The notes under the pieces were generated by a model. That model did no database searches, had not been told where the DNA came from, and worked only from the letters and a program-made list of their open reading frames with translations. A stretch of 64,000 nt of DNA from Eledone cirrhosa (Eukaryota): NCBI GenBank assembly GCA_964016885.1, contig OZ024744.1:53196001-53260000 (forward strand). Reading direction: 5' to 3'. How positions within the stretch are numbered: position 1 is the stretch's first letter; every line of letters begins with the position of its first letter. This document shows positions 21,701 to 60,870 of this stretch, piece by piece. A program made the position numbers and the translations under genes.

Positions 21701-23924
21701 CTTCACAGATCACAAATTTGTGGTCCGTGTAGTCGACGACTTTAAATTGTGGACAACCTACACTAGCCTTATCTGTTTCCCTACAGAATACCCTATCTAA
21801 ATACGATCTGGATGACCCGATGCGGTTTGCCCTTGTGCACATTGGCACATTCGGATAATCCAGTCTATACCTGTCAGAGAGTTCAAAACGTCTGAGCATG
21901 TTTTTAAGGATTTTACACCCTCCTGCCCTTTCTACTAGACCCACATAATACCAGCGTGCTTCCAAAAAGGTCTCTAGACGTCTGAAGAAATCTGGCCGTC
22001 CTGCCCCTGTTGGTTCGTAGACGCTACTAGACTAAAAGCATTGCCTTCGCTGCCAGTCACGTCCAGCACCAACGACGTACCTTCTGGATCCAGGAAGATG
22101 GCCCGTATGGCGAGATCCAAGCCTCTCCGAAGAAGCACGGCAACTCCCCCCCCCCCCCCCCCGATTATGGACGGCTGGGAGTTGCGTATACATCGTAGCC
22201 GCCGAAGATCGGTCCGAAGGCTCGTGCTTCGGAGATTCTGGTTTCGCTGATGGCCACCTCATCTATGTTTAGTGACCTGAGGTCGTTGAGCAGGTGACCC
22301 TGCTTCCAAGATGACTCCGGGCCACGTACATTTATAGTGCCTATTCTAAATACGGCCATGCTGGATGAGAAACGGAGTAAGTGAAAAAGGATCACTTACC
22401 TTGATCGTGTGGTGAAGGGACAGTAGAACCGTCCCTTTCGCTGGTCATGGGTGTTTCCAAGAGGATGTTGGTGTATATCCTCTTGGTAACCGACCCTCTG
22501 AAGTATCCAACTGCGTTGGGGAATTTTTGTTTTAAAGGTTTGTACTGTTCTATTGAGATTTCGATGATGCTTATGTTTGTCGGGAGAGTTCTTGGTGTTG
22601 GTGGGGTGTAGTAGTTTGTTTCTGTGATGTCAGTGTATATCCTCTTGGTAACCCACCCTTTGAAGTCTCCAACTGCGTTGGGGAATTTTTTTTTTAAAGT
22701 TTGTAATGTTCTATTTTGATTTCAATGATGTCTATGTTTGTCGGGAGAGTTCTTGGTTTTTGTGGGGTGTATTAGTTTGTTTCGGTGATGTCTGTGTGCT
22801 GCTTTATATGTTGTAAGAGTTCTTTATTTGCCATGTTTATGGCTGTGTACGTTTTGGGGGAGGGGTGATTTTGTTGCTGTTTTCTTGTTGCTGTTGGGCG
22901 AGTGAGTTTTGTTGTGTTTGCGATGTTGGTGTTTTTGGTGATGGTAGTGGTGGTGTGGTTGTTGTTGGTGGTGATGCTTGTGGTAGTGATGGTGACGGTG
23001 GTGGTGTTGCTGCAAGTCTTCTTGCAGCCTTTACCCCTCTTTGTCTGCCTTCACTTTTGGAGGGTGAAGCTAAGGGGTTTTTCCTTTTTTGTTTTTTTGT
23101 TGCAGACCGTTTGCCACTTCCCTCCTGCCTTATACTCCATGTCAGATTCTGTGGCGTCCGGGAGGGGTATGAACTCCACTGCTGTTGGTGGTGGTAGTGG
23201 CGCCCGCTCCGGCGATTTTACCGCTGGTGTAGCTACTGAGACTGTTGGTGTTGCCGCCACTGCTGCCACTGCTTTAGTTGTCCGTGGTCTTGGTATGGGT
23301 GCCACGGACGTTGCCCTCCTACTCACCATGGAGGGTTCTTCTGCCTTTGTTGCCTGACCTGCTCCTGGTATCAGCGATCAGGCTTCGGACTGAGGGGGGT
23401 CCCCTCTTCTTGGCTGTCTTCTTCGGGCAGAAGGCCCTGAGGTGACCCTTCTGCCCACAGAGATACCACTTTGGGCGCCTTCCTTCCACGCTTATAGGAA
23501 GTTAGAGCCCTTCTTCGAGATCTATGATGTCTGGGATGGCCTTGATGCACTCCTGGTCAGTCTGTATTAGCATTTGCATGCCTTTTCCTGACCAGTTCTC
23601 TCTTCACATTCTCTGTAGTTGCAGTATGGTGGGTTCTCCTCGATTCCAGCCAGTGAAGACACGACCAGCCAACGTATAGGCACGTAGGGCGGGACCAGGG
23701 TCACTTCGACCCTCACAATTTTCTCCCCACAGTAGGAGGGCACCAAGACTATCTCCTCACTCTTTAGGGTTTCCAAAGTGTGTGACTTCGCCTCTTGTGG
23801 GGTGGCGAAAAGTACGTCTAAAGTGGCGTTCTTTTTGCCTCGGGTAATGTGGTTTGTGCGCGCCCAGACGCACCCCAAGGCCTTTTGGATTAGAGCCTTT
23901 GTGGCTCTCTCCACCCGATGTGAT
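18776..23924 (-). mobile_element. Tx1-clade LINE E4, nested in E3, 5' truncated within ORF1
   Basis: 3' end AATAAAGAAACC abuts E3 at 18775; degenerate ORF2 from ATG 22359; ORF1 remnants to ~23920. Confidence 0.9.

Positions 23925-33210: not shown

Positions 33211-33258
<48 letters not shown>
33211..33258. repeat. (AAT)16 spacer, tail of E7
   Basis: Perfect AAT tract. Confidence 0.95.
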
Positions 33259-33260
<2 letters not shown>

Positions 33261-33521
33261 TTTCTTTATTAACCACAAGGGTTTACATAAAGTAGACATT
33301 AAGGACAGTGCAGGACAATGCAGGACGGTACAAATGGGCATTTCTGCGTGTAAAAAAAACAAAAATAGAGGATGTAACAAAAATAACAATGAAAATAACA
33401 ATGAAAAATTCCCCAATAGGGGGGAGACTTCGGAGGGACATTTGTGGAGAAAGCCCAGTAAAAAGCCACAATGACCCTGACCACCAAGGCAAGTGCCCTC
33501 TCCCAGTTTTCCACCTTTAGT

Positions 33522-36500
33522 TTACAGATATATACTCAGAGTCGGCCCATTCACTCGGGCCATTCTTGCTTCTCTCACCCATCTTTCAACAAAATGCTGG
33601 GAAGAGAGCACTTCCTTCTCTACTCTGATTTTCCTTTTCAAATGAAATTTGAAAAAGTCAATCAGAGCATCACCGAAGAGGTAAGTGCTCGTCTTCAGCC
33701 CTTTCAAACGTGTCCACCATACTATCTCTTTCGCCATGGCCACCAGACAGATAAAAACTGCCTGCCCTTCCCGGCTAAAGGAGGAGGGCGGGGCAATCCT
33801 CACGATAGACTCAGATGATAGCTGGATCCGTCCTAAACGCGACAGCAGGTGTTCGACATAAACCCACAAGTCAGCAATTTTCGGACACTGGACGAGTGCG
33901 TGCAGGACGGTTTCGTCGCCCTGCGCGCATCTCGGACATGCCCGGCTGACGGCACCTCCATGCCTGTAGAGTTTATCCCGAACTGGCAAGGCTCCTCGGT
34001 AGCACTGCCAGGCCAGAGATTTCTGGAAGTTGTCCATAGGCCCTGGCCCGAAAGTTCTTCCGAAGAGATTGGCTAGTTGATTTTCGTCGACGCCTAGAGT
34101 TTCCCCAAGTACGTCGTCGCTCTTCCCCTCCACTAATCCTCTATAGAACGCCGAGGTGGAGTTTCCACCGATCACATTGCCCGATTGGTCGAGGGCTGTG
34201 AGCGCCTGAAGACATTCCAGTCTCCAGGCGCTCCCTCTCGGTCTTCGCTTGACCCAGGACTGCAGCTCCGTCAAGGAAACGAGCTGGGGAAAAACGCGTC
34301 TAGCAAACGGCGACCACACCTGATCACCGTCGAGGAAGAGGTGGAGATGTCGTAGCCTGAGCGCGTGCCTGCGCATCATCAGCCACGGCATGCCCAGCCC
34401 TCCACGTAGCGGGTGTTGACAACAGATGGACCGCCTGACCATCGGAGCACGTCCCTTCCACAAAAAGCGAAAGAGCAAACGCTCCAGCGCAGTCAGGCGA
34501 GGCTTAGGACAAGGTACGACGGTTAGGCGGTAGCAGATGACAGACGCGATGTACGCGTTAGCCACCTCCGCTCGACCTTTCAGGGATAGCTTCCTCTCCG
34601 CCCATTTCTGGGTGAGAGAAGCCACCCTGCTCGTCACCTCGTCCCAGTTTTTGTCCGTCTGGAGGTCCGGACCGAACCAGACCCCTAGCAATTTAACCGG
34701 TCCGTCCGTCCAGCGCCCGACGACGCTGTTGGACGGCATGGACCTGTCTCTCCAGGTGCCGAGCTGCAGGCCCACTGACTTTTCCTGGTTGATCATTGCT
34801 CCTGTCACCGCTTCGTATTCTCTTAGTGTAGTGCCGATCGCCTCGATGTGTTTGGCGTTCGACACCACTACGGTGACATCGTCCGCATATGCTGACACGG
34901 ATCTTCCGCATCCTAGTTCGCGCGGGACTCCCCTCAACGTCTCCAGTTTGTGCAGTAATGGCTCGAGAGTCAATACGTACAAGAGGGACGAGAGGGGACA
35001 TCCTTGGCGGACCGAGCGCATGATGTTGAACGGTTCCGACAGGTGACCGTTCACTCTCACCACAGAGCAGATGTCGCTGTGCATGGCAGCGATCCAGCCT
35101 CTGAAGACGGGCCCAAAGCCAGCCGCCCTCAGGACTGCCGCTAGGTAACGATGGTCGACCCTATCGAAAGCTTTCGACTGATCTAAATTGATCAAGGACC
35201 CACCCGTGCCAGGTTCCCTAGCTACCCTCTCTACGATGTATCGCATGAGGTGGAGGTTGTCGTGGATGGATCTGTCGGGAATGGCGCATGTCTGCGCCTC
35301 TCCCACCAGACCACCAACGACAAGCGCCAACCTCTTTGCTAGCACCTTGGCCAAAATCTTAAACTCTGTGTTTAGCAGAGTTATGGGCCGGAAATTGTCT
35401 ATGTTATCCCCCTTGTTCTGATCCTTTCTCAGCAGTGCCACCGCTCCTCGGCTCACAGAACTGGGAATTCTCCCGTTCTGTTGCCAGTTGCAGTAGACGT
35501 CCGCCAAGAGGCCTCCGAACAAGTCTGGCATCTGTACGTAAAGTTCATAGGGCAGACCATCCAAACCAGGCGATTTACCCCTTGTGCAGCCAGTCATTGC
35601 CTCCCTTACTTCAGCGGCTGTTATCGGCTTTTCGCAACACTTCGCCTCAGTGGCCGAGAGCCGCGGCAGTCCGTCGAGGTAGACACTAAAGTCCATCCCT
35701 CTACCCGGCCCACCGCTGCCCCCGAACAGCTGAGCGAAGTGTCGCTGAAAAGCTTCACACATTTGCCCGGGATCGAGTAGCATGCGCCCGTCGTGGTCCA
35801 CCAAAGACCGGATCGTGGCTTTGTTGCCACGACGCGCCTCCGCCACTCGGGCCCATTGAACGGCTTTCGTCCCCTCGTGTCTGAGAGCACGCACCCTAGC
35901 TCTGACAACGCAGCCTTCGTGCTTTGCATTGAAGAATTGGTCAAGGGCCAATTTCGCCGCAAGCACGTCGGTCGCAATGCCTTTGCTAAGCGCCTCGTCT
36001 AATTTTCTAACTAGTTCTCCCTCTGCTCTATTTTTCTCTATTGCTAAAGCCTTACTAAACCTAATCGATTCTATTCTAATCGCTCTTTTCAGAGCAAACC
36101 ACCACTTGTTGTTGACGATGGCCCCCGTCAACGCCCGCTTAACTAGTTCGCTAATCCGGTCTCTGTAGGCCTTGCGCGCTGGTAAGGACGCGTTTAGCTT
36201 CCAGTAGCCGGGTCCTCGTCTATGAAGCCTATCTAAGTCAAGCACACAGATCACGAATTTGTGGTCCGTGTAGCTGACTATCTTGAATTGTGGACAGCCT
36301 ATGCTAGACCTATCTATTTCCCTACAAAATACTCTATCTAGATATGATCTGGATGACCCTATGCGGTTTGTCCAAGTCCACATTGGCACATTCGGGAAAT
36401 CCAATCGGTACCTGTCAGACAGTTCAAAACGCCTGAGCAGGTTGGTGAGGCTCTTGCACCCTCCACCCCTATCCGCTAATCCCACACAGTCCCAGCGTGC

Positions 36501-36941
36501 ATCTAAGATGCCGTTCCAGTCGCCCACTAACACTAAAGAGCGGGACGTTCCAAGAAAGGTCTCCAGACGCCGGAAGAAATCAGGCCGCCCTGCTCCTGTC
36601 GGGGCATAGACGGCCACTAGCCTGAAAGCTTGCCCGTCTCCGCTGGTCACGTCCAGCACCACCAGCTTACCCTCTGGGTCCAGGAAGATGGCCCGTATGG
36701 CGAGATCCAAACCTCTCCGAAAAAGTACAGCAACTCCTCCACCGGATCCAGGACGGCTGGGAGATGCGTACACATCGTAGCCGCCGAAGATCGGTGCGAA
36801 GGCCCGTGCTTCGGAGATTCTGGTCTCGCTGATGGCCACTACATCTATGTTTAGTGACCTGAGGTCGTTGAGCAGGTGACCCTGCTTCCATGACGACCCC
36901 AAGCCACGCGCATTTATGCTGCCTATTCTGAGTGAGGTCAT
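33522..36941 (-). CDS. ORF2p, 1139 aa: APE endonuclease, reverse transcriptase, C-terminal CCHC
   Basis: SINARG, ISETR, VYAP, GDWN, YLDRV, TDHK; KSPGLDG, NFRPITLLN, DQSKAFD, RQGCPLS, YADD; CPRCAQGDETVLHALVQC. Confidence 0.95.
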   Translation of the reverse strand: MTSLRIGSINARGLGSSWKQGHLLNDLRSLNIDVVAISETRISEARAFAPIFGGYDVYASPSRPGSGGGVAVLFRRGLDLAIRAIFLDPEGKLVVLDVTSGDGQAFRLVAVYAPTGAGRPDFFRRLETFLGTSRSLVLVGDWNGILDARWDCVGLADRGGGCKSLTNLLRRFELSDRYRLDFPNVPMWTWTNRIGSSRSYLDRVFCREIDRSSIGCPQFKIVSYTDHKFVICVLDLDRLHRRGPGYWKLNASLPARKAYRDRISELVKRALTGAIVNNKWWFALKRAIRIESIRFSKALAIEKNRAEGELVRKLDEALSKGIATDVLAAKLALDQFFNAKHEGCVVRARVRALRHEGTKAVQWARVAEARRGNKATIRSLVDHDGRMLLDPGQMCEAFQRHFAQLFGGSGGPGRGMDFSVYLDGLPRLSATEAKCCEKPITAAEVREAMTGCTRGKSPGLDGLPYELYVQMPDLFGGLLADVYCNWQQNGRIPSSVSRGAVALLRKDQNKGDNIDNFRPITLLNTEFKILAKVLAKRLALVVGGLVGEAQTCAIPDRSIHDNLHLMRYIVERVAREPGTGGSLINLDQSKAFDRVDHRYLAAVLRAAGFGPVFRGWIAAMHSDICSVVRVNGHLSEPFNIMRSVRQGCPLSSLLYVLTLEPLLHKLETLRGVPRELGCGRSVSAYADDVTVVVSNAKHIEAIGTTLREYEAVTGAMINQEKSVGLQLGTWRDRSMPSNSVVGRWTDGPVKLLGVWFGPDLQTDKNWDEVTSRVASLTQKWAERKLSLKGRAEVANAYIASVICYRLTVVPCPKPRLTALERLLFRFLWKGRAPMVRRSICCQHPLRGGLGMPWLMMRRHALRLRHLHLFLDGDQVWSPFARRVFPQLVSLTELQSWVKRRPRGSAWRLECLQALTALDQSGNVIGGNSTSAFYRGLVEGKSDDVLGETLGVDENQLANLFGRTFGPGPMDNFQKSLAWQCYRGALPVRDKLYRHGGAVSRACPRCAQGDETVLHALVQCPKIADLWVYVEHLLSRLGRIQLSSESIVRIAPPSSFSREGQAVFICLVAMAKEIVWWTRLKGLKTSTYLFGDALIDFFKFHLKRKIRVEKEVLSSQHFVERWVREARMARVNGPTLSIYL

Positions 36942-36976
36942 GTTTAAAATAGAGTGGAAAAGATGGGAAAGACCAC

Positions 36977-39073
36977 TTACCGTACTTTTGGTAGAGGAGG
37001 GATGGTTTTTACATCCCTTTTCACTTGATCGTCTGGTGAAGGGACCGTTGAATCGTCCCTTCGGCTGGTCGTCGGCTCTTCTAAGAGAATGTCTGAGTAT
37101 ACTCTTCGATTGATGGTTCCTCCTAGGTCCCTGAAATCACCAACTGCGTTGGGGAATTTCGTTTTAATATTTGTGTATTGTTTCTGTGCTATTTTTAGCA
37201 GTCTTATGTTAGTTGGCGTTTTGATTGGTGCTGGTATTATGTAGTCCTGTTGTGAAATGTCTGTGTGTTCAATTATGTAAGTCATTAGTTTCTTGTTGTG
37301 TGTATTTATTGCCGTGCATTTGTTTTTCTGGGGGTGGGGTGTGGTTCTGCTATTTTCTTGTCGTTGTTGCTGGGTGTGTGTGTTTTGTTGTTGTGTTTGC
37401 GATGTTGGTGCTTGTGGTGGTGGTGTTGAAGGTGTTGTTGGCGGTGGGGTTGTCGCCGGTGGTGATGGTGGCGCTAGTGTGGGTGGTGATGGTGTTGGTG
37501 TTGTTGCTGCTGTGGGTCTCTTTGCAGTAGACTTTACCCTTTTCTCATTTCTTTCCTCCCTTTTCAAAGGCGACGATGCGCTGTTTCTGCGTTTGTGCCT
37601 TCTTACGACCTTTTGCCATCTCTCTCCCACCTCACACTCCATGTCTGATTCTGTGAGGTCGGGGAGGGGTACCAGCTGCACTCTTTCACTTGTTGTTGTT
37701 GGTGATGTTTGCACTGGAGTCTCTGTTGCAGCTGCATTTGGTATTGCTGTTGTTGTTGTTAGTATTTCCACTGCTGCTGCTGTTTTTGATTTCCGTGGAG
37801 TGGGTATGGGTGCCACGGGCCTATCGTTCCTGGTTGCCGCTTGTCCTGTTGCTGGTAGCCGTGGAGCCGGATTCGGAAGGAGGGGGGTTTTCTCCTTTCT
37901 CAGGGTCTTCTCGTTGCAGAAGGCCCTGAGGTGAGTCTTCGATCCACAGCGAAAGCATTTCGGGCGTTTGCCCTCAACACTTATGGGCAGTTGAGTGCCG
38001 TTATCGAAGTCTATCACATCCGGGATAGCTTCGATGCACTCCTGGTTGGTTTGGATTAGCATCTCAATGGAGTAGCCGACCCAATCTTCTCTTACTTTTT
38101 TCTGTACTTGCAGTACAGTTGTTTTGTCCTCGATTCCGACGAGGACAGACGCGGCCAGCCAAGAAGGGGTCATTCCGGGGGGTACGTGGGTCAGTTTGAC
38201 CCTCACAATTTTTTGCCCACAGTAGGAGGGCACCAACACCATTTCCTCGCTCCTTAGGGTCACTACTGATTGGGCCTTTGCCTCCTGGGGTGTGGCAAAA
38301 AGTACGTCTACGGTGGCATATTTTTTGCCTCGGGTGATGTGCGTTTTCCGCTGCCACACAGACCCCAAGGCTTTTTGTATTTGGGCCTCTGTGGCTCTTT
38401 CCACCCTACGGGATTTTGTACTTACTGTACGGTACGTGACCGTACAGTGCTCTTGGGTTTCGAAAAAATTTTCCGCTGCCTTGCAGATTGCTCGGTGTCC
38501 GTTCTTTGTCACCATCTTCTTCGCTTCCTCTAATTCCTCATTTGTTATGAGGATTGTTTCCAAGTTTTTCGCAATACCTGCAAATGAGATTGGTTTTTCT
38601 CTGCTGTTGTTGTTGTCGTCAGAGCTGCTGGTACTTTTGTTGTTGCTGCAGGTACTACGACTACTGCCTCCGCCGCTGTTGCTGTGGTTGTTGTTGGTGT
38701 TGCTGCTGCTAATGCTGTTGTTGTTTATGCTGCTGGTGATGCTGTTGCGGCTGCTACTGTTGTTTTCATTGTCACTGTTGCTGTTGTTATTACGGCTGCT
38801 ACTGCTATTATTCCTGACGTCAGACGAATGAACTGGGTTTTCGTATTTCCCGCACAACTGTTTCGTCGCTGTCGTCGTCGTCGTGGAGAAACCTTGCACG
38901 CTTTGCACGAGACTTTTCTTTTCTTTCGTCGCTTGCGAAAGAGAAGGGAGGGAGAGAGACACATTTAAAGAAGGGAGGGAGAGAGACAATCTTCTCTCTG
39001 CTGTAGTGATGATTGAGGAAGAAGAAGACGGAATGAGTGGGAGTGACGTATGAAATTTCTTTTTCGTAGCCAT
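36977..39073 (-). CDS. ORF1p, ~698 aa nucleic-acid-binding protein with one CCHC knuckle
   Basis: ATG at 39073 in the AAAAAACATG context seen in other copies; Asn/Ser tract, SFAGIA, CFRCGSKTHLRAFC, Pro/Thr-rich region, basic WQKVVRRHKRR. Confidence 0.9.
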   Translation of the reverse strand: MATKKKFHTSLPLIPSSSSSIITTAERRLSLSLPSLNVSLSLPSLSQATKEKKSLVQSVQGFSTTTTTATKQLCGKYENPVHSSDVRNNSSSSRNNNSNSDNENNSSSRNSITSSINNNSISSSNTNNNHSNSGGGSSRSTCSNNKSTSSSDDNNNSREKPISFAGIAKNLETILITNEELEEAKKMVTKNGHRAICKAAENFFETQEHCTVTYRTVSTKSRRVERATEAQIQKALGSVWQRKTHITRGKKYATVDVLFATPQEAKAQSVVTLRSEEMVLVPSYCGQKIVRVKLTHVPPGMTPSWLAASVLVGIEDKTTVLQVQKKVREDWVGYSIEMLIQTNQECIEAIPDVIDFDNGTQLPISVEGKRPKCFRCGSKTHLRAFCNEKTLRKEKTPLLPNPAPRLPATGQAATRNDRPVAPIPTPRKSKTAAAVEILTTTTAIPNAAATETPVQTSPTTTSERVQLVPLPDLTESDMECEVGERWQKVVRRHKRRNSASSPLKREERNEKRVKSTAKRPTAATTPTPSPPTLAPPSPPATTPPPTTPSTPPPQAPTSQTQQQNTHTQQQRQENSRTTPHPQKNKCTAINTHNKKLMTYIIEHTDISQQDYIIPAPIKTPTNIRLLKIAQKQYTNIKTKFPNAVGDFRDLGGTINRRVYSDILLEEPTTSRRDDSTVPSPDDQVKRDVKTIPPLPKVR

Positions 39074-39286
39074 GTTTTTTTGTTTAAAATGAAATTTTGG
39101 GTACAAAACCCCAATAACTGGTTATTTAACCCCGAAGGGCCAAATAACGGACAGAAAGACCCCTCTCACGAGGAGGAGGGTGTCTTTATCAACAATTTGG
39201 TTCAAGTTTTAAACAATTTACAATTGTTTTAACGGTTAAAAATTACTATACCTTACAGAGCCGAGCCTCCGTCAACCATGGCATTC

Positions 39287-39317
39287 AATAATAATAATAA
39301 TAATAATAATTAATAAT
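39287..39317. repeat. (AAT)8T(AAT)2 spacer
   Basis: Identical to 45333-45363. Confidence 0.95.
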
Positions 39318-39567
39318 GATTTCTTTATTAACCACAAGGGTTTACATAAAGTAGACATTAAGGACAGTGCAGGACAATGCAGGACGGTACAAATGGGCAT
39401 TTCTGCGTGTAAAAAACAAAAACAGAGGATGTAACAAAAAATAACAATGAAAAATTCCCCAATAGGGGGGAGACTTCGGAGGGACATTTGTGGAGAAAGC
39501 CCAGTAAAAAGCCACAATGACCCTGACCACCAAGGCAAGTGCCCTCTCCCAGTTTTCCACCTTTAGT

Positions 39568-42500
39568 TTACAGATATATACTCAGAGTCGGCCCATTCAC
39601 TCGGGCCATTCTTGCTTCTCTCACCCATCTTTCAACAAAATGCTGGGAAGAGAGCACTTCCTTCTCTACTCTGATTTTCCTTTTCAAATGAAATTTGAAA
39701 AAGTCAATCAGAGCATCACCGAAGAGGTAAGTGCTCGTCTTCAGCCCTTTCAAACGTGTCCACCATACTATCTCTTTCGCCATGGCCACCAGACAGATAA
39801 AAACTGCCTGCCCTTCCCGGCTAAAGGAGGAGGGCGGGGCAATCCTCACGATAGACTCAGATGATAGCTGGATCCGTCCTAAACGCGACAGCAGGTGTTC
39901 GACATGAACCCACAAGTCAGCAATTTTCGGACACTGGACGAGTGCGTGCAGGACGGTTTCGTCGCCCTGCGCGCATCTCGGACATGCCCGGCTGACGGCA
40001 CCTCCATGCCTGTAGAGTTTATCCCGAACTGGCAAGGCTCCTCGGTAGCACTGCCAGGCCAGAGATTTCTGGAAGTTGTCCATAGGCCCCGGCCCGAAAG
40101 TTCTTCCGAAGAGATTGGCTAGTTGATTTTCGTCGACGCCTAGAGTTTCCCCAAGTACGTCGTCGCTCTTCCCCTCCACTAATCCTCTATAGAACGCCGA
40201 GGTGGAGTTTCCACCGATCACATTGCCCGATTGGTCGAGGGCTGTGAGCGCCTGAAGACATTCCAGTCTCCAGGCGCTCCCTCTCGGTCTTCGCTTGACC
40301 CAGGACTGCAGCTCCGTCAAGGAAACGAGCTGGGGAAAAACGCGTCTAGCAAACGGCGACCACACCTGATCACCGTCGAGGAAGAGGTGGAGATGTCGTA
40401 GCCTGAGCGCGTGCCTGCGCATCATCAGCCACGGCATGCCCAGCCCTCCACGTAGCGGGTGTTGACAACAGATGGACCGCCTGACCATCGGAGCACGTCC
40501 CTTCCACAAAAAGCGAAAGAGCAAACGCTCCAGCGCAGTCAGGCGAGGCTTAGGACAAGGTACGACGGTTAGGCGGTAGCAGATGACAGACGCGATGTAC
40601 GCGTTAGCCACCTCCGCTCGACCTTTCAGGGATAGCTTCCTCTCCGCCCATTTCTGGGTGAGAGAAGCCACCCTGCTCGTCACCTCGTCCCAGTTTTTGT
40701 CCGTCTGGAGGTCCGGACCGAACCAGACCCCTAGCAATTTAACCGGTCCGTCCGTCCAGCGCCCGACGACGCTGTTGGACGGCATGGACCTGCCTCTCCA
40801 GGTGCCGAGCTGCAGGCCCACTGACTTTTCCTGGTTGATCATTGCTCCTGTCACCGCTTCGTATTCTCTTAGTGTAGTGCCGATCGCCTCGATGTGTTTG
40901 GCGTTCGACACCACTACGGTGACATCGTCGGCATATGCTGACACGGATCTTCCGCATCCTAGTTCGCGCGGGACTCCCCTCAACGTCTCCAGTTTGTGCA
41001 GTAATGGCTCGAGAGTCAATACGTACAAGAGGGACGAGAGGGGACATCCTTGGCGGACCGAGCGCATGATGTTGAACGGTTCCGACAGGTGACCGTTTAC
41101 TCTCACCACAGAGCAGATGTCGCTGTGCATGGCAGCGATCCAGCCTCTGAAGACGGGCCCAAAGCCAGCCGCCCTCAGGACTGCCGCTAGGTAACGATGG
41201 TCGACCCTATCGAAAGCTTTCGACTGATCTAAATTGATCAAGGACCCACCCGTGCCAGGTTCCCTAGCTACCCTCTCTACGATGTATCGCATGAGGTGGA
41301 GGTTGTCGTGGATGGATCTGTCGGGAATGGCGCATGTCTGCGCCTCTCCCACCAGACCACCAACGACAAGCGCCAACCTCTTTGCTAGCACCTTGGCCAA
41401 AATCTTAAACTCTGTGTTTAGCAGAGTTATGGGCCGGAAATTGTCTATGTTATCCCCCTTGTTCGGATCCTTTCTCAGCAGTGCCACCGCTCCTCGGCTC
41501 ACAGAACTGGGAATTCTCCCGTTCTGTTGCCAGTTGCAGTAGACGTCCGCCAAGAGGCCTCCGAACAAGTCTGGCATCTGTACGTAAAGTTCATAGGGCA
41601 GACCATCCAAACCAGGCGATTTACCCCTTGTGCAGCCAGTCATTGCCTCCCTTACTTCAGCGGCTGTTATCGGCTTTTCGCAACACTTCGCCTCAGTGGC
41701 CGAGAGCCGCGGCAGTCCGTCGAGGTAGACACTAAAGTCCATCCCTCTACCCGGCCCACCGCTGCCCCCGAACAGCTGAGCGAAGTGTCGCTGAAAAGCT
41801 TCACACATTTGCCCGGGATCGAGTAGCATGCGCCCGTCGTGGTCCACCAAAGACCGGATCGTGGCTTTGTTGCCACGACGCGCCTCCGCCACTCGGGCCC
41901 ATTGAACGGCTTTCGTCCCCTCGTGTCTGAGAGCACGCACCCTAGCTCTGACAACGCAGCCTTCGTGCTTTGCATTGAAGAATTGGTCAAGGGCCAATTT
42001 CGCCGCAAGCACGTCGGTCGCAATGCCTTTGCTAAGCGCCTCGTCTAATTTTCTAACTAGTTCTCCCTCTGCTCTATTTTTCTCTATTGCTAAAGCCTTA
42101 CTAAACCTAATCGATTCTATTCTAATCGCTCTTTTCAGAGCAAACCACCACTTGTTGTTGACGATGGCCCCCGTCAACGCCCGCTTAACTAGTTCGCTAA
42201 TCCGGTCTCTGTAGGCCTTGCGCGCTGGTAAGGACGCGTTTAGCTTCCAGTAGCCGGGTCCTCGTCTATGAAGCCTATCTAAGTCAAGCACACAGATCAC
42301 GAATTTGTGGTCCGTGTAGCTGACTATCTTGAATTGTGGACAGCCTATGCTAGACCTATCTATTTCCCTACAAAATACTCTATCTAGATATGATCTGGAT
42401 GACCCTATGCGGTTTGTCCAAGTCCACATTGGCACATTCGGGAAATCCAATCGGTACCTGTCAGACAGTTCAAAACGCCTGAGCAGGTTGGTGAGGCTCT

Positions 42501-42987
42501 TGCACCCTCCACCCCTATCCGCTAATCCCACACAGTCCCAGCGTGCATCTAAGATGCCGTTCCAGTCGCCCACTAACACTAAAGAGCGGGACGTTCCAAG
42601 AAAGGTCTCCAGACGCCGGAAGAAATCAGGCCGCCCTGCTCCTGTCGGGGCATAGACGGCCACTAGCCTGAAAGCTTGCCCGTCTCCGCTGGTCACGTCC
42701 AGCACCACCAGCTTACCCTCTGGGTCCAGGAAGATGGCCCGTATGGCGAGATCCAAACCTCTCCGAAAAAGTACAGCAACTCCTCCACCGGATCCAGGAC
42801 GGCTGGGAGATGCGTACACATCGTAGCCGCCGAAGATCGGTGCGAAGGCCCGTGCTTCGGAGATTCTGGTCTCGCTGATGGCCACTACATCTATGTTTAG
42901 TGACCTGAGGTCGTTGAGCAGGTGACCCTGCTTCCATGACGACCCCAAGCCACGCGCATTTATGCTGCCTATTCTGAGTGAGGTCAT
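39568..42987 (-). CDS. ORF2p, 1139 aa: APE-RT-CCHC
   Basis: Same motifs as E7 ORF2; three visible residue differences (Q/P, D/G, Y/H). Confidence 0.95.
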   Translation of the reverse strand: MTSLRIGSINARGLGSSWKQGHLLNDLRSLNIDVVAISETRISEARAFAPIFGGYDVYASPSRPGSGGGVAVLFRRGLDLAIRAIFLDPEGKLVVLDVTSGDGQAFRLVAVYAPTGAGRPDFFRRLETFLGTSRSLVLVGDWNGILDARWDCVGLADRGGGCKSLTNLLRRFELSDRYRLDFPNVPMWTWTNRIGSSRSYLDRVFCREIDRSSIGCPQFKIVSYTDHKFVICVLDLDRLHRRGPGYWKLNASLPARKAYRDRISELVKRALTGAIVNNKWWFALKRAIRIESIRFSKALAIEKNRAEGELVRKLDEALSKGIATDVLAAKLALDQFFNAKHEGCVVRARVRALRHEGTKAVQWARVAEARRGNKATIRSLVDHDGRMLLDPGQMCEAFQRHFAQLFGGSGGPGRGMDFSVYLDGLPRLSATEAKCCEKPITAAEVREAMTGCTRGKSPGLDGLPYELYVQMPDLFGGLLADVYCNWQQNGRIPSSVSRGAVALLRKDPNKGDNIDNFRPITLLNTEFKILAKVLAKRLALVVGGLVGEAQTCAIPDRSIHDNLHLMRYIVERVAREPGTGGSLINLDQSKAFDRVDHRYLAAVLRAAGFGPVFRGWIAAMHSDICSVVRVNGHLSEPFNIMRSVRQGCPLSSLLYVLTLEPLLHKLETLRGVPRELGCGRSVSAYADDVTVVVSNAKHIEAIGTTLREYEAVTGAMINQEKSVGLQLGTWRGRSMPSNSVVGRWTDGPVKLLGVWFGPDLQTDKNWDEVTSRVASLTQKWAERKLSLKGRAEVANAYIASVICYRLTVVPCPKPRLTALERLLFRFLWKGRAPMVRRSICCQHPLRGGLGMPWLMMRRHALRLRHLHLFLDGDQVWSPFARRVFPQLVSLTELQSWVKRRPRGSAWRLECLQALTALDQSGNVIGGNSTSAFYRGLVEGKSDDVLGETLGVDENQLANLFGRTFGPGPMDNFQKSLAWQCYRGALPVRDKLYRHGGAVSRACPRCAQGDETVLHALVQCPKIADLWVHVEHLLSRLGRIQLSSESIVRIAPPSSFSREGQAVFICLVAMAKEIVWWTRLKGLKTSTYLFGDALIDFFKFHLKRKIRVEKEVLSSQHFVERWVREARMARVNGPTLSIYL

Positions 42988-43022
42988 GTTTAAAATAGAG
43001 TGGAAAAGATGGGAAAGACCAC

Positions 43023-45119
43023 TTACCGTACTTTTGGTAGAGGAGGGATGGTTTTTACATCCCTTTTCACTTGATCGTCTGGTGAAGGGACCGTTGAATC
43101 GTCCCTTCGGCTGGTCGTCGGCTCTTCTAAGAGAATGTCTGAGTATACTCTTCGATTGATGGTTCCTCCTAGGTCCCTGAAATCACCAACTGCGTTGGGG
43201 AATTTCGTTTTAATATTTGTGTATTGTTTCTGTGCTATTTTTAGCAGTCTTATGTTAGTTGGCGTTTTGATTGGTGCTGGTATTATGTAGTCCTGTTGTG
43301 AAATGTCTGTGTGTTCAATTATGTAAGTCATTAGTTTCTTGTTGTGTGTATTTATTGCCGTGCATTTGTTTTTCTGGGGGTGGGGTGTGGTTCTGCTATT
43401 TTCTTGTCGTTGTTGCTGGGTGTGTGTGTTTTGTTGTTGTGTTTGCGATGTTGGTGCTTGTGGTGGTGGTGTTGAAGGTGTTGTTGGCGGTGGGGTTGTC
43501 GCCGGTGGTGATGGTGGCGCTAGTGTGGGTGGTGATGGTGTTGGTGTTGTTGCTGCTGTGGGTCTCTTTGCAGTAGACTTTACCCTTTTCTCATTTCTTT
43601 CCTCCCTTTTCAAAGGCGACGATGCGCTGTTTCTGCGTTTGTGCCTTCTTACGACCTTTTGCCATCTCTCTCCCACCTCACACTCCATGTCTGATTCTGT
43701 GAGGTCGGGGAGGGGTACCAGCTGCACTCTTTCACTTGTTGTTGTTGGTGATGTTTGCACTGGAGTCTCTGTTGCAGCTGCATTTGGTATTGCTGTTGTT
43801 GTTGTTAGTATTTCCACTGCTGCTGCTGTTTTTGATTTCCGTGGAGTGGGTATGGGTGCCACGGGCCTATCGTTCCTGGTTGCCGCTTGTCCTGTTGCTG
43901 GTAGCCGTGGAGCCGGATTCGGAAGGAGGGGGGTTTTCTCCTTTCTCAGGGTCTTCTCGTTGCAGAAGGCCCTGAGGTGAGTCTTCGATCCACAGCGAAA
44001 GCATTTCGGGCGTTTGCCCTCAACACTTATGGGCAGTTGAGTGCCGTTATCGAAGTCTATCACATCCGGGATAGCTTCGATGCACTCCTGGTTGGTTTGG
44101 ATTAGCATCTCAATGGAGTAGCCGACCCAATCTTCTCTTACTTTTTTCTGTACTTGCAGTACAGTTGTTTTGTCCTCGATTCCGACGAGGACAGACGCGG
44201 CCAGCCAAGAAGGGGTCATTCCGGGGGGTACGTGGGTCAGTTTGACCCTCACAATTTTTTGCCCACAGTAGGAGGGCACCAACACCATTTCCTCGCTCCT
44301 TAGGGTCACTACTGATTGGGCCTTTGCCTCCTGGGGTGTGGCAAAAAGTACGTCTACGGTGGCATATTTTTTGCCTCGGGTGATGTGCGTTTTCCGCTGC
44401 CACACAGACCCCAAGGCTTTTTGTATTTGGGCCTCTGTGGCTCTTTCCACCCTACGGGATTTTGTACTTACTGTACGGTACGTGACCGTACAGTGCTCTT
44501 GGGTTTCGAAAAAATTTTCCGCTGCCTTGCAGATTGCTCGGTGTCCGTTCTTTGTCACCATCTTCTTCGCTTCCTCTAATTCCTCATTTGTTATGAGGAT
44601 TGTTTCCAAGTTTTTCGCAATACCTGCAAATGAGATTGGTTTTTCTCTGCTGTTGTTGTTGTCGTCAGAGCTGCTGGTACTTTTGTTGTTGCTGCAGGTA
44701 CTACGACTACTGCCTCCGCCGCTGTTGCTGTGGTTGTTGTTGGTGTTGCTGCTGCTAATGCTGTTGTTGTTTATGCTGCTGGTGATGTTGTTGCGGCTGC
44801 TACTGTTGTTTTCATTGTCACTGTTGCTGTTGTTATTACGGCTGCTACTGCTATTATTCCTGACGTCAGACGAATGAACTGGGTTTTCGTATTTCCCGCA
44901 CACCTGTTTCGTCGCTGTCGTCGTCGTCGTGGAGAAACCTTGCACGCTTTGCACGAGACTTTTCTTTTCTTTCGTCGCTTGCGAAAGAGAAGGGAGGGAG
45001 AGAGACACATTTAAAGAAGGGAGGGAGAGAGACAATCTTCTCTCTGCTGTAGTGATGATTGAGGAAGAAGAAGACGGAATGAGTGGGAGTGACGTATGAA
45101 ATTTCTTTTTCGTAGCCAT
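43023..45119 (-). CDS. ORF1p, ~698 aa
   Basis: As E7 ORF1; ATG at 45119. Confidence 0.9.
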   Translation of the reverse strand: MATKKKFHTSLPLIPSSSSSIITTAERRLSLSLPSLNVSLSLPSLSQATKEKKSLVQSVQGFSTTTTTATKQVCGKYENPVHSSDVRNNSSSSRNNNSNSDNENNSSSRNNITSSINNNSISSSNTNNNHSNSGGGSSRSTCSNNKSTSSSDDNNNSREKPISFAGIAKNLETILITNEELEEAKKMVTKNGHRAICKAAENFFETQEHCTVTYRTVSTKSRRVERATEAQIQKALGSVWQRKTHITRGKKYATVDVLFATPQEAKAQSVVTLRSEEMVLVPSYCGQKIVRVKLTHVPPGMTPSWLAASVLVGIEDKTTVLQVQKKVREDWVGYSIEMLIQTNQECIEAIPDVIDFDNGTQLPISVEGKRPKCFRCGSKTHLRAFCNEKTLRKEKTPLLPNPAPRLPATGQAATRNDRPVAPIPTPRKSKTAAAVEILTTTTAIPNAAATETPVQTSPTTTSERVQLVPLPDLTESDMECEVGERWQKVVRRHKRRNSASSPLKREERNEKRVKSTAKRPTAATTPTPSPPTLAPPSPPATTPPPTTPSTPPPQAPTSQTQQQNTHTQQQRQENSRTTPHPQKNKCTAINTHNKKLMTYIIEHTDISQQDYIIPAPIKTPTNIRLLKIAQKQYTNIKTKFPNAVGDFRDLGGTINRRVYSDILLEEPTTSRRDDSTVPSPDDQVKRDVKTIPPLPKVR

Positions 45120-45332
45120 GTTTTTTTGTTTAAAATGAAATTTTGGGTACAAAACCCCAATAACTGGTTATTTAACCCCGAAGGGCCAAATAACGGACAG
45201 AAAGACCCCTCTCACGAGGAGGAGGGTGTCTTTATCAACAATTTGGTTCAAGTTTTAAACAATTTACAATTGTTTTAACGGTTAAAAATTACTATACCTT
45301 ACAGAGCCGAGCCTCCGTCAACCATGGCATTC

Positions 45333-45363
45333 AATAATAATAATAATAATAATAATTAATAAT
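45333..45363. repeat. (AAT)8T(AAT)2 spacer
   Basis: Identical to 39287-39317. Confidence 0.95.
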
Positions 45364-48140
45364 GATTTCTTTATTGGCCACAAGGGCTGACATCAAGAAA
45401 AACATTACAGACGGCACAGGACGGTACAGGACGGTATGATGTGGGTTTTGTGGGTGTAAAATTTTTTATTATTTATATAAGAAAAGAAAAAAAAAGACAT
45501 AGAAACATATATATATATAAACAATAAAAATGAAAATTGGAACAATGAAAATTTCCCCAATAGGGGGGAAACGACCGAGGGTTACTCGTGGCGAAAACCA
45601 CACAAAAGACCACGGCCACCCTGACCACCAGGGCAAGCGCCCTCTCTCAATTTTTCTATTTCTCAAACTGCAGACGTATATTCAGAGCGGTCCCGTTCAC
45701 TCGGACCATTCTCGCTACATTCACCCACCTTTCATCAAACGTGCTAGAAGGCAGCACTAGCCTCTCCACCCTGATTTCCCTCCGTAAAAGGACGGCAACC
45801 CCTTCCAAGATGACCCAAGGCCACGTGCATTTATACTGCCTATTCTGAGTACGGCCATGTTGGATGAGAAACGGGGCAAGAGAGAAAGGGTCTCTTACCT
45901 TGATCGTGTGGTGAAGGGACAGTAGAACCGTCCCTTAGGCTGATCATGGGTGTTTCCAAGAGGATATCAGTGTATATCCTCTTGGTAACCGACCCATTGA
46001 AATCCCCAACTTAGTTGGGGTATTATTGTTTTAAAGGTTTCTACTATTCTATTGAGATTTCAATGATGCTTATTTTTGTCGGGAGAGTTCTTGGTGTTGG
46101 TGGGGTGTAGTAGGTTTTTTTCTGTGGTGTCTGTGTGCTGCTTTATATATTTTATGAGTTCTTTTTTTGCCATGTTTATGGCTGTGTACTTTTGTGGGGG
46201 AGGGGTGATTTTGTTGCTGTTTTCTTCTTGTTGCTGTTGGGTGTGTGTGTTTTGTTTTGTTTGCGTTGTTGGTGTTTTTGGTGATGATGGTGGTGTTGTG
46301 GTTGTTGTTGGCGGTGGTGCTTGTGGTGGTGATGGTGATGGTGGTGGTGTTGCTGCAAGTTTCCCTGCTGCCTTTACCCCTCTTTGTGTGCTTTCGCTTT
46401 TGGGGGGTGAATCTAAGGGGGTTTTCTTTTTTTATTTTGTAGCTGACCGTTTGCCACTTCATTCCCGCCTGAGAATCCATGTCGGATTCCATGGCATCTG
46501 GGAGGGGTATGTGCTCCACGGCTGTTGGTGGTGGTAGTGGAGCCCTTTTCGGCGATTTTGTTGCTGGTGCAGCTACTGCAAATGTAGCTATTGGTGTTGC
46601 CGCCACTGATGCTGCTGCTTTAGTTGTCGTGGCCTTGGTACGGGTGCTACGGACGTTGACCTCCTACACATCGTGGAAGGGGCTTCTGCGTTTGTTGCCT
46701 GCCCTGCTCTTGGTAGCAGCGGACCAGGTATTGGAAGGAGGGGGCCCACTTCTTCGGTGTCTTCTGCCGGCAAAAGGGCCTTGCGTGACCCTTTGACCCA
46801 CAGAGATAACATTTTGGCCGTCTTCCTTCTACGCGTATAGGAAGATGGAGTCCTTCCTCGAGGTCTATGATATCGGGGATAGCGTCGATACATTCCTGGT
46901 CAGTTTGTATAAGCATTTGCATGCCTATACCTGTCCAGTTCTCTCTCCCTATTTTCTCTACTTGCAGCATGGTCGTCCTGTCCTCGATTCCAGCAAAGAC
47001 AGACGTGGCCAGCCAAGGTATGAGCACGTCGGGTGGGACCTGGGTCACTTTGACCCTCACAATTTTTCGCCCGCAGTAGGAGGGCACCGAGACTATCTCC
47101 ACACTCTTTAGGGTTTCCAAAGAGTGAGAATTTGCTTCCTGGGGGGTGGCGAAAAGTACGTCTACTGTGGCGTACTTTCTGCCTCGGGTGATGTGGTTTT
47201 TGCGTGCCCAGACGCACCCCAAGGCCTTTGGGATTTGAGCCTCCGTGGCTCTCTCCACCTGATGTGAGAATTTGCTTACGGTGCGGTAAGTCACCGTCCG
47301 TAGCTGCTGGTCCTCGAAAAAATCGGGTGGAGGTTTCAGGGAAACTCTATTGGCGCTTCTCGTCACCATGGTCCTTGCGACTGCCATCTCCTCCTCTGTG
47401 ACTAACACTGTCTCGATATTTCGGGCGACACCTGCAAAAGAAGTGGTCCCTTTTTCAGCGGCACCACTATTGCTGTCGCTACTGTCTTACTGGTGGTGCT
47501 GAGATCGCTGTTGCAGGTATCGATGTCATTGTTGATGTTTTCGTTGGTACTGTTGTTGTTGTTGTTGTTGTTGTTGTTTTCGTTGATACTGTTATTGTGG
47601 CTGTTATTATTATTGTTGTTTTTGTTGATACTGTTCCTACTATTAATGTTGTTGTGGCTGTTGTTATTGTAATTGTTATTGTCGTTCTGGACCTTACCGC
47701 TGTTGTTTTTGTTGTTGCTGTTGTTATTGATGGTGTTGTTGTTGGTGTTATTGTTGGTGTTGTTTGTGTTAGAAATATTTGGTGATTTTAAATCTGTAAC
47801 AATCCTCTTTCCCTTCATAATATTTTCGTTTATATTTACCTCCGCTGGAACGTTGTCTTGTTGACATGCTGATAAAGTCACCCTCTCTATGTGCTGTCTA
47901 ACAGCGGTCTCTCTCTTTCTTGTGTTATCCATGTTGAAATTTTTTTTTTTTTAAATATTTTTACACAAATACGATACCCCGTAAAGGGGTGCCGTATTTT
48001 TTACGTGTGAACCCCTATATTAGGTGGGTCATTTCTTCTAAACTTTTATCAAATTTAAAACTTGATAAAAGGTTTAGAAGGGTTGAAAACGAGGTAAAAC
48101 GTTGAAAAAAACAGGAGACGATAAGAAGCGCGGCTTCACC
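45364..48140 (-). mobile_element. Tx1-clade LINE E9, ORF2-deleted derivative with full-length but disrupted ORF1
   Basis: ORF1 from ATG 47932 to ~45890; ORF2 start MAVLRIGSINARGLGSSWK (45858-45803) joined to only the last ~40 codons. Confidence 0.9.
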
Positions 48141-48158
48141 AACAATAATAATAATAAT

Positions 48159-51100
48159 GCTTTCTTTATTAACCACAAGGGTTTACATAAAGTAGACATT
48201 AAGGACAGTACAGGACAATACAGGACGGTACAAATGGGCATTTCTGCGTGTAAAAAAAACAAAGGAAGTAATAAAAAATAACAATGAAAAATTCCCCAAT
48301 AGCGGGAAGACTTCCGAGGGACATTTGTGGAGAAAGCCCATTAAAAGGCCACAGTGACCCTGACCACCAGGGCAAGTGCCCTCACCCAGTTTTCCACCTT
48401 TAATTTACAGACACATACTCAGAGTAGGCCCATTCATTCGGGCCATACTTGCTTCTCTCACCCATCTTTCAACAAAATGCTGGGAAGAGAGCACTTCCCT
48501 CTCTACCCTGATTTTCCTTTTGAAATGAAATTTGAAAAAGTTAATCAGGGCATCACCGAAGAGGTAAGTGCTCGTCTTCAGCCCTTTCAAACGTGTCCAC
48601 CATACTATCTCTTTCGCCATGGCCACCAGACAGATAAAAACTGCCTGCCCTTCACGGCTTAGGAAGAGGGCGGGGAAATCCTTACGATGGACTCAGCTGA
48701 TAGCCGGATCTGTCCCACACGTGACAGCAGGTGTTCGACATAAACCCACAAGTCAGCAATGCTCGGAAACTGGACGAATACGTGCAGGACGGTTTCGTCA
48801 CTCTGCGTGCATCTCGGACATGCCCGGCTGATGGCAACTCCATGCCTGTAGAGTTTATCCCGAACTGGCAAAGCTCCTCGGTAGCACTGCCAGGCCAGGG
48901 ATTTTTAGAAATTGTCCATAGGCCTCGGCCCGAAAGTCCTTCCGAAGAGATTGGCTAGTTGATTTTCGTCGACGCCTAGAGTTTCTCCAAGTACGTCGTC
49001 GCTTTCCCCTCCACTAATCCTCTATAGAACGCCAAGGTGGAGTTTCCACAGATCACATTGCCCGATTGGTCGAGGGCTGTGAGCGCCTGAAGACATTCCA
49101 GTCTCCAAGCGCTCCCTCTCGGTCTTCGCTTGACCCAGGACTGCAGCTCCGTCATTGAGACGAGCTGGGGAAAGACGTGTCTAGCAAACGGCGACCACAC
49201 CTGATCACCGTCGAGGAAGAGGTGGAGATGTCGTAGCCTGAGCGCGTGTCTGCGCATCATCAGCCACGGCATGCCCAGCCCTCCAGGTAGCGGGTGTTGA
49301 CAGCAGATGGACCGCCTGACCATCGGAGCGCGTCACTTCCACAAAAAGCGAAAGAGCAAACGCTCCAGCGCAGTCAGGCGAGGCTTAGGACAATGTACGA
49401 CGGTCAGGCGGTAGTAGATGACGGACGCGATTTACGCGTTGGCCACCTCCGCCCGACCTTTAAGGGATAGCTTCCTCTCCGCCCATTTCTGGGTGAGAGA
49501 AGCCACCCTGCTCGTCACCTCGTCACAGTTTTTGTCCGTCCGGAGGTCCGGACCGAACCAGGCCCCTAGCAATTTAACCGGTCTGTCCGCCCAGCGCCCA
49601 ACGACGCTGTTGGACGGCATGGACCTGCCTCTCCAGGTGCCGAGCTGCAGGCCCACTGACTTTTCCTGGTTGATCACTGCTCCTGTCACCGCTTCGTATT
49701 CTTTTAGTGTAGTGCCAATCGCCTCTATGTGTTTGGCGTTCGATACAACTACGGTGACATCGTCCGCATATGCTAACACAGATCTTCCACATTCTGGTTC
49801 GCGCGGGACCCCCCTCAACGTCTCCAGTTTGTGCAGTAATGGCTCGAGAGTCAATACGTACAAGAGGGACGAGAGGGGACATCCTTGGTGGACCGAGCGC
49901 ATGATGTTGAACGGTTCCGAAAGGTGACCCTTCACTCTGACAACACAGCAGATGTCGCTGTGCATGGCAGTGATCCAGCCTCTGAAGACGGGCCCAAAGC
50001 CAGCCGCCCTCAGGACTGCCGCTAGGTAACGATGGTCGAACATATCGAAAGCTTTCGACTGATCTAAATTGATCAAGGACCCACCCGTGCCAGGTTCCCT
50101 AGCTACCCTCTCTACGATGTATCACATGAGGTGGAGGTTGTCGTGGATGGATCTGTCGGGAATGGCGCACGTCTGCGCTTCTCCCACCGGACCACCAACG
50201 ACAAGCGCCAACCTCTTTGCTAGAACCTTGGCCAAAATCTTGAACTCTGTGTTTAGCAGCGTTATGGGCTTGAAATTATCTATGTTATCCCCCTTGTTTG
50301 GATCCTTTCTCAGCAGCACCACAGCTCCTCGGCTCACAGAGCTAGGAATTCTCCCGTTCTGTTGCCAGTTGCAGTAGACGTCCGCCAAGAGGCCTCCGAA
50401 CAAGTCTGGCATCTGTACGTAAAATTCATAGGGCAGAACATCTAAATAGGCGATTTAACCCTTGTGCAGCCAGTGATTGCCTCCCGTACTTTAGCGGCTG
50501 TTATCGGCTTTTCGCAACACTCCGCCTCAGTGGCCGAGAGCCGTGGCAGTCCGTCGAGGTAGACACTAAAGTCCATCCCAAGATCCGGCCCACCGCTACT
50601 CCGAACAGCTGTGCGAAGTGTCGTTGAAAAGCTTCACATATTTGCCCGGGATCGAGTAGCATGCGCCCGTCGTGGTCCACCAAAGACCAGATCGTGGCTT
50701 TGTTGCCACGACGCGCCTCCGCCACTCGGGCCCATTAAACGGCTTTCGTCCCCTCGTGTCTGAGAGCACGCACCATAGTTCTGACAACGCAACCTTCGTG
50801 CTTTGCATTGAAGAATTGGTCTAGGGCCAATTTCGCCGCAAGCACGTCGGTCGCGCTCCCTTAACTAAGCGCCTCCTCTAATTTTCTAACTAATTCTCCC
50901 TCTGCTCTATTTTTCTCTATTGCTAAAGCCTTACTAAACCTAATGGACTCTATTCTAATTGCTCTTTTCAGAGCAAACCACCACTTGTTGTTGACGATGG
51001 CTCCAGTCAACGCCCGCTTAACTAGTTCGCTAATCCGGTCTCTGTAGGCTTTGCGCGCTGGTAAGGACGCGTTTAGCTTCCAGTAGCCGGGTCCTCGTCT

Positions 51101-54008: not shown

Positions 54009-54041
<33 letters not shown>

Positions 54042-59641: not shown

Positions 59642-59989
59642 AATAATAATAAGAAGAAGAAGAAGAAAAAGAAGGCGTAAGCTGCACTTAATGATCTGTC
59701 GCAAAAGATTAATCGAGAAACCGATAGAAACGATATCAATATGAAAGACAAAGACGACACAAATCATGGTGCAATGACGTCATAGATTTATACCTGGGGT
59801 TATTGAGGACAGCATAAATACTTCAAGACTGAATGTTGATGTTATTGGTGTTGTTGTTGCTGTTGTTGTTGTTTTATGTGTCTATTTTTAGGTGATTAAT
59901 ACACGGGTAAGTAGGAATGCTTTCGCCCGCTCTTGGTACCAGTGGAAAAGGATTATGTGATTAACTATAAGTATAATTAAATGCTAGTA

Positions 59990-60788: not shown

Positions 60789-60862
<74 letters not shown>

Positions 60863-60870
60863 TGTATGTA

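Follow-up and report, generated by a model that had tools for sequence, protein, structure and literature searches.

A LINE family of Eledone cirrhosa with two parents, joined at a GTAAGT motif at the end of ORF1

A mosaic of two LINE families

A young LINE family in the 3.0-Gb genome of Eledone cirrhosa, here called family C, is a mosaic of two parents: promoter and ORF1 come from a family P, and the last 42 nt of ORF1, the spacer, ORF2 and the 3′ UTR come from a family Q. The family arose once and then diverged stepwise to its young intact form. We give roughly even chances that its founding event was a single splice, either within an RNA that ran from P into Q or between two RNAs in trans, followed by retrotransposition, a reading drawn from the sequence at the joint and around it.

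The window, meaning the whole 64,000-nt stretch analyzed (G000:C28:53196001-53260000), contains a minus-strand head-to-tail array of related LINEs with (ATT)n runs between them (Table 1). Family labels (C, P, Q, R, S, and T) were coined in the present analysis. Two neighboring copies of family C, E7 and E8, have both ORF1 and ORF2 open and are 99.6% identical to each other, in keeping with the initial annotation, which had called them intact. ORF2 of E7 matches PF03372 (3.4e-14), PF00078 (1.3e-28), and PF13966 (7.9e-08). Its ORF1 matches no Pfam family above the cut-off; a CCHC motif, CFRCGSKTHLRAFC, can be read in the sequence, and Atlas look-alikes (0.91-0.93), a lead only, carry zf-CCHC and ZCCHC3-type RNA-binding families. 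The tails are (ATT)n, and 36 of 37 C/P-type 5′ ends sit directly after at least two ATT units (counted in 10-kb loci with overlaps retained). The nearest named database match is partial and lies in an Octopus sinensis gene model.

By its domains and repeat target the element fits the L1/Tx1 type, with a putative Tx1 placement of its reverse transcriptase (RT). Short repeats are frequent targets among Tx1 elements (PMC4494074). Like the Tx1 elements Kibi and Koshi, which target (TC)n and (TTC)n (PMC4494074), and the L1-Tx1 families of Octopus vulgaris, 13 of which are given as recently active in Table 1 of the available text of PMC13282606, family C has two ORFs, APE/RT/zf-RVT domains, an apparent CCHC motif in ORF1, and insertion at a short repeat. 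It differs from Kibi and Koshi in its target, (ATT)n, and in a GTAAGT motif at the end of ORF1 that is kept across families.

Table 1. Positions of the elements and features discussed (window positions unless a contig or locus is named)
Feature	Position	Strand	Remarks
E7, intact full-length family C copy	33229..39286	-	flanked by (ATT)n runs
E7, P-derived part: 5′ UTR/promoter and ORF1	37024..39286	-	ATG at 39073; ends ...GACGATCAAG
E7, chimeric junction CAAG/TGAAAAGG	37023..37024	-	AG (2 nt) common to both parents
E7, Q-derived ORF1 tail	36981..37023	-	43 nt, in tandem with P's homologous tail
E7, Q-derived donor-like GTAAGT	36975..36980	-	contains ORF1 stop TAA (36979-36977)
E7, Q-derived ORF2	33522..36941	-	1139 aa; APE endonuclease, RT, zf-RVT (Pfam)
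E8, second intact family C copy	39287..45332	-	upstream of E7, head-to-tail; junction 43070/43069
E9, R1-type copy with internal deletion	45333..48140	-	not C's parent
E10, decayed family Q copy	48141..54007	-	AG 51901-51900; own donor 51857-51852
E11, related family R3	54008..59643	-	not C's parent; donor 57453-57448
E4, donor GTAAGT	22394..22399	-	R2-type copy; ORF1 68% to E7
E5, donor GTAAGT at ORF1 end	25540..25545	-	distant S-type family
L103, candidate source locus	G000:C1 (113.16 Mb)		donor 113161151, acceptor 113169250
Copies with 5′ end GGTCTG...CCCAGTAAGTC	L164, L165, L170, L177, L178, window 59643 (E11)

Read on the minus strand, E7 has GACGATCAAG/TGAAAAGGGATG at 37024/37023 (a slash marks the joint or the donor boundary), E4 and E11 have CACGATCAAG/GTAAGTGA at the same site, and E10 has CACAAGCAG/TGAAAAGGATG; all three sequences and their positions are as first annotated. 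Written as families, P is GACGATCAAG/GTAAGTGA, Q is CACAAGCAG/TGAAAAGGATG, and C is GACGATCAAG/TGAAAAGGGATG. The P side stops exactly at a perfect AG/GTAAGT and the Q side starts right after a CAG, so the earlier claim of a chimera joined exactly at the conserved donor, after an AG, is correct. One ORF1 tail separates the two sides from proper register, their overlap is the 2-nt AG, and ORF1 of E7 does carry both C-termini in tandem, ending in STVPSPDDQVKRDVKTIPPLPKVR before the stop. When one mismatch is allowed, a 21-nt junction sequence matches the genome 2,747 times; the reversed control matches nowhere.

Downstream of the joint, the reported match of E7 to E10 was recovered at 94.0% identity over 37025-33241. 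Upstream, E7 ORF1 is only 65% identical to E10 over 525 nt. The initial annotation had traced ORF1 to the type found in E4, E9, and E11, a parentage that we reject: these copies reach only 66–68% identity, vs. 85–96% per 100-nt bin over 38500-37101 for copies of family P. Over the same interval Q copies align to E7 only in patches, with 61–72% identity in the ORF1 core. Family P was found by the pattern of ORF1 end plus donor and is small, with 74 exact donor matches in the genome; it is 88–92% identical to E7 in ORF1 and 80–84% in ORF2, and its copies retain an intact donor at the position of the joint. Family Q, to which E10 belongs, has 2,827 genome matches, and is 94–97% identical to E7 in ORF2 (among the rows shown) and about 65% in ORF1. 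In a sliding identity profile along E7, the crossover between P and Q is the junction.

Separate ORF1 and ORF2 trees, the check that had been proposed, are incongruent (24 rows each; one row was dropped per tree for lack of a match or short cover). In the ORF1-core tree C groups with P (support 100) and C+Q is rejected (p-AU 0.006); in the ORF2 tree C groups with Q (support 100) and C+P is rejected (p-AU 1e-59). An internal tandem duplication in E7, with E10 derived from it, is excluded because C falls inside P on the upstream side of the joint and inside Q on the downstream side; both parents have single tails.

Single origin and a candidate source

Diagnostic alleles are nested stepwise from early chimeric copies to young C. 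One of them, T at -74, is present in every sampled chimera but in only 4 of 70 P-donor copies, and repeated independent origins are ruled out by such derived alleles, which all sampled chimeras carry. A single junction origin, together with scans of Q/C, R, P, and S copies that returned no second donor-to-AG join, leaves unsupported the earlier proposal that arrays could act as recurring splice factories. A 34-nt early form, in which late-Q sequence follows the joint unmodified except for one extra G, has 207 exact matches, and a search for extra bases at the joint itself gave no matches among the genome copies.

The tail after the joint is 43 nt in C vs. 42 nt in Q, and the difference is this extra G, 8 nt from the joint. 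It puts the tail back into Q's frame (...DDQVKRDGETILPLREVR and stop; without it, ...VKRMEKPSFLYEK and stop). Six chimeric copies lack the G, one of them (L174) among the earliest. They are dispersed through the lineage, and the best reading is therefore that most or all are back-deletions; as raw founders they are not supported. Six Q copies have the same G, so it can arise by slippage, or it may predate the fusion. In two of the copies without it, L102 (G000:C11:47675608) and L098 (G000:C1:83761641), ORF1 reads through the spacer and reaches the ORF2 ATG in frame.

Among P copies, the one at locus L103 comes nearest to the earliest chimeras, and its allele pattern fits the two earliest of them. 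It has 28 alleles in common with at least 60% of chimeras, eight of which occur in at most one other P copy when named recombinant copies are excluded. A late-type Q copy lies downstream on the same strand, with its CAG 8,098 nt from the donor and about 2.2 kb of other DNA between. Of 75 P-donor copies, 28 had enough downstream sequence for this comparison; five of the 28 have a Q acceptor downstream, and three have the matching late Q variant, which makes the pairing at L103 about a 1-in-10 coincidence. The Q copy behind L103 has no extra G and no private allele in common with most chimeras, and L103 thus stays a candidate founder, unproven; it could itself be a recombinant. The head-to-tail geometry on which the initial annotation built its case is accordingly real for P upstream of Q, but the E11-E10 pair offered as the example does not provide it (E11 ORF1 is 66–67% identical to E7). 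P-then-Q order at L103 gives modest support to a read-through template, on which either a splice in cis or a jump by RT could have taken place.

Two other founders were considered and rejected. At L113/L278, the Q copy that follows P at a distance of 6,195 nt has the extra G; the Q side fits at 8 of 9 sites, and the P side has 3 of 16 alleles and is without 21 of 23 5′ alleles. L351 has 16 of 16 alleles and is a back-recombinant, because mid-stage alleles are present and no same-strand Q copy lies downstream. At L278/L286 (G000:C2:46716738, minus strand), a Q copy with the extra G sits right behind P, and its ORF1 frame ends in a TGA that overlaps the ORF2 ATG.

Possible ways of joining the two halves

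A splice could have produced the joint in a few steps. Elements of the lineage would take (ATT)n as their target, the tails of other copies among them, and would in this way build head-to-tail arrays. Transcription from P would run past a weak P 3′ end into Q, or two RNAs would be trans-spliced, and P's AG/GTAAGT donor would be joined to a cryptic, weak CAG acceptor in Q. The spliced RNA, keeping an intact ORF2 and the Q 3′ tail, would then be mobilized in cis, and a 1-nt gain of G would bring the ORF1 tail back to Q's frame before the main amplification. Such a founding splice would have been a one-off rather than a recurring event. Counted in its favor are the exact donor end, the start right after CAG, the low chance of this placement, the two reading phases of GTAAGT, the unmodified late-Q sequence of early copies, the existence of P-then-Q neighbors, and the precedents of retrotransposed spliced L1 RNAs (PMC5860796) and of exon-to-L1 splices (PMC13174262); counted against it are the weak acceptor, the failure to find another spliced copy in the families scanned, internal deletions that bear no splice signature and most often overlap by 2 nt, in-register swaps elsewhere in the lineage, and the second event needed for the extra G.

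The chance of placement was estimated with a microhomology model that takes its weights from the overlaps of this genome's own deletions and assumes the sizes of the viable windows. The share of viable P-to-Q junctions that fall on the donor is 1.2–6.1%, and 0.8–3.8% meet both the donor and an AG. The caveat that the acceptor lacks a pyrimidine tract was well placed: by a crude in-house score it ranks 293 of the 412 AGs in a P-to-Q interval, and 42 nt upstream lies a stronger CAG that is also in frame. Next to the joint, P (AAG-GTAAG-TGA) and Q (CAG-TGA) have AGTGA in common, and two Q copies have lost the 5-nt GTAAG through slippage. This overlap, and the slip-prone AAG-GTAAG adjoining the joint, raise the odds of an origin other than splicing.

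The chief competitor, which we regard as a real possibility but short of an even one, is an RT template switch during target-primed reverse transcription: RT would have come off a Q RNA after 42 nt of ORF1 and resumed, primed by the AG/AGTGA microhomology, on P RNA, either co-packaged or upstream on one read-through RNA, and the coincidence with the donor would be due to chance or follow a 5-nt slip. The single base gained 8 nt away from the joint is in keeping with an imprecise junction, and strand switching is commonly proposed for the mosaic L1 families of mouse (PMC3600994). Exchange between families is also common here. Five of the 75 P-donor copies carry at least 10 of 16 chimera-fixed ORF1 alleles; in L351 the crossover is within about 60 nt of the donor. 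P and R1 have ORF2 in common but not ORF1, with an in-register switch about 200–250 nt into ORF2, and in L170, a Q copy, the 5′ part is R2-type and meets the rest at a longer microhomology. Modules are thus often swapped in this lineage, in most cases without any need for a splice site.

The same exchanges also weigh against a template switch at the joint of C, as nearly all of them are in-register and this joint is not. The breakpoints of other chimeras, a check suggested at the outset, map to in-register positions or to longer microhomology, and none is a donor-to-AG join. An in-register P-to-Q switch within ORF2 would have been easier, but coarse painting of 35 P-donor copies gave only scattered late or single-bin Q/C-like stretches, one of which, in L105, is a separate inserted C copy. 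The donor-plus-AG placement has the low chance given above, and no AGTGA-type intermediate survives.

Two side observations concern these exchanges. L351, L114, L364, L365, and L372 are back-recombinants, in which ORF1 is of the C type while the donor, the spacer, and ORF2 are of the P type. A 5′ end of the type GGTCTG...CCCAGTAAGTC, with GTAAGT near its base 32, is common to R2, R3, S, and one Q copy, showing promoter swapping.

A genomic deletion in a P-then-Q array, end-joined at the AG overlap, would have made the hybrid directly in DNA by removing P's spacer, ORF2, and tail along with Q's promoter and most of its ORF1. Such P-then-Q pairs exist, and the 147 internal deletions in the fetched loci have an overlap peak at 2 nt (46 of 147), the same as the joint of C. 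One deletion, in L389, starts exactly at the Q/C donor (ACG overlap, no AG), which shows that chance matches on a donor do occur. GT-AG placement was found in 1 of 145 internal deletions vs. 0.96 expected, after two further matches were dropped as artefacts of an insert in the S reference. We nevertheless consider this origin improbable: it requires a deletion of 6–8 kb whose two ends each fall in a narrow interval and which leaves the halves intact, it has the same low chance of landing on the donor, and the locus of the best candidate source, L103, is undeleted in the present assembly.

Finally, a P 5′ exon freed at the first splicing step, with CAAG at its 3′ end, could have been reached by an RT jump or by ligation. 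This would account for an exact donor end paired with a poor acceptor. RTs of R2 and L1 are able to jump onto RNA ends, and RNA ligation has reportedly been seen for U6/L1 chimeras. First-step intermediates are short-lived, however, and the Q side does follow a CAG; we hold this route to be very improbable.

The ORF1-end motif and comparison with known systems

All families seen (P, Q, R, S, T, and C) have a GTAAGT at the ORF1 end; behind it come a spacer rich in pyrimidines, about 30–42 nt long, and AACATG. The motif is read as G/GT AAG TGA or TAA in P, R, and S, and as AG/G TAA GT in Q, C, and T, and the five sites in the window (in E4, E5, E7, E10, and E11) overlap or precede the ORF1 stop. 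Since it is held in two reading phases, it is not merely the by-product of one stop codon. The GTAAGT count of 76 of 81 is inflated by the many loci chosen by the motif itself; S and T were found largely by a pattern that requires it and are circular for its conservation. Independent evidence comes only from the window copies and from the Q copies found by upstream sequence. A perfect 5′ splice-site motif at the end of ORF1 in two phases points to RNA-level control of ORF1/ORF2 expression; GTAAGT may bind U1 or control ORF2 translation. The fullest version of the splicing account holds that the spliceosome joined P's promoter and ORF1 to Q's ORF2 on read-through RNA of a self-built array and so founded a young family that is among the most abundant of the lineage, that the U1-matching GTAAGT is a functional RNA signal and module boundary, and that the source on G000:C1 survives. 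Taken as a whole, this is less likely than not.

Scans for other spliced copies covered the Q/C, R, P, and S families, and are blind to exons beginning NT and to decayed copies; no second ORF1-donor-to-AG join was found among these copies. The Q/C donor scan gave 2 and 41 matches, all with point changes or small indels except one deletion that ends without AG. The R donor scan gave 0 and 5 matches, none joined; the P donor scan gave 29 rows, comprising mutants and one deletion of about 31 nt within a late C copy, with no join; and the S donor scan gave none. From the acceptor side, only P/Q fusions and two local changes were recovered. A short intron from the donor to an AG in ORF2 codons 4–5, which would fuse ORF1 and ORF2 in frame in Q, C, and T but not in P, is rejected as well (0 spliced copies).

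The 3′ UTR of C and Q has a strong acceptor-like site with a T-run, ACACGCAG/AAATG (about 33344-33360 in E7, minus strand). An ORF1-only RNA made by splicing to this site is possible judging by its sequence; joins of the donor to it were found in 0 of 62 rows. P and R have another acceptor-like site near the 3′ end, TTTTTCTTGATGTCAG/CCC. Contigs of four runs (kind unrecorded) cover the element, and three span the junction; none has a listed joint at the donor, a result uninformative on splicing.

Swaps of promoter and ORF1 between LINEs have been described, as in mouse L1, and the Tf and Gf mosaics have been ascribed to DNA recombination, RNA/DNA heteroduplex, or RT strand switching (PMC3600994, available text). 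Like these, C is a successful family in which a single event brought together an ORF1/5′ end and an ORF2 from different families. The mouse breakpoints reported in that text are within ORF2, and splicing is not among the mechanisms it lists, whereas the joint of C is out of register, on a donor, and duplicates the ORF1 tail. SpIREs are retrotransposed spliced L1 RNAs, described as dead ends in the available text of PMC5860796. C resembles them in that its joint fits GT-AG donor/acceptor rules, though with a weak acceptor. SpIREs, as described there, are spliced within one L1; the joint of C, by the trees, is between two families, and C founded about 2,700 copies in a graded lineage that leads to intact young copies.

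Closer in one respect are chimeras of mRNA and LINE-1 made by cis- or trans-splicing, such as RAP1GDS1-L1PA2, in which exon-to-L1 splices can rescue mobility (PMC13174262, available text). There, as in C, a foreign 5′ part ends at a donor and gives the LINE a new promoter; those cases involve host exons and one or two insertions, and C involves a LINE promoter plus ORF1 and a lasting autonomous family. The available portions of PMC12129022 and PMC6581046 hold nothing that bears on inter-element splicing, and our search of the literature, in which subscription papers and Repbase Reports were incompletely covered, found no report of such splicing founding a LINE family. Recombinant LINE families are an established class, and family C is one of them. 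In the way it works it resembles a SpIRE or an exon-L1 chimera, but the definition of a SpIRE does not cover it.

How LINEs swap parts is hard to see because breakpoints usually lie in homologous sequence. The out-of-register joint, surviving parents, early stages, and candidate locus make the mechanism of C's origin testable. If splicing did make C, a spliced LINE RNA can have a future, and arrays built by target-specific insertion are a route to new autonomous families; this would be a little-known way for LINEs to swap parts.

Some minor features of the window and related loci were also recorded. A more distant RT-bearing fragment (RVT_1, zf-RVT) lies at 28399-30122 on the plus strand, opposite in orientation to the array, and an older, inverted, internally broken relative occupies 10500-12350 on the plus strand, with its ORF1-end GTAAGT near 10600. 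A cluster of short repeats, both inverted and direct, lies at 3520-8600 and 60600-60980 and has no relation to the LINEs. A short repeat of about 190–200 nt recurs beside ATT runs of the arrays (L177, about 976-1165; also in the L277, L279-L282, and L385 region loci) and is perhaps a SINE with the same target.
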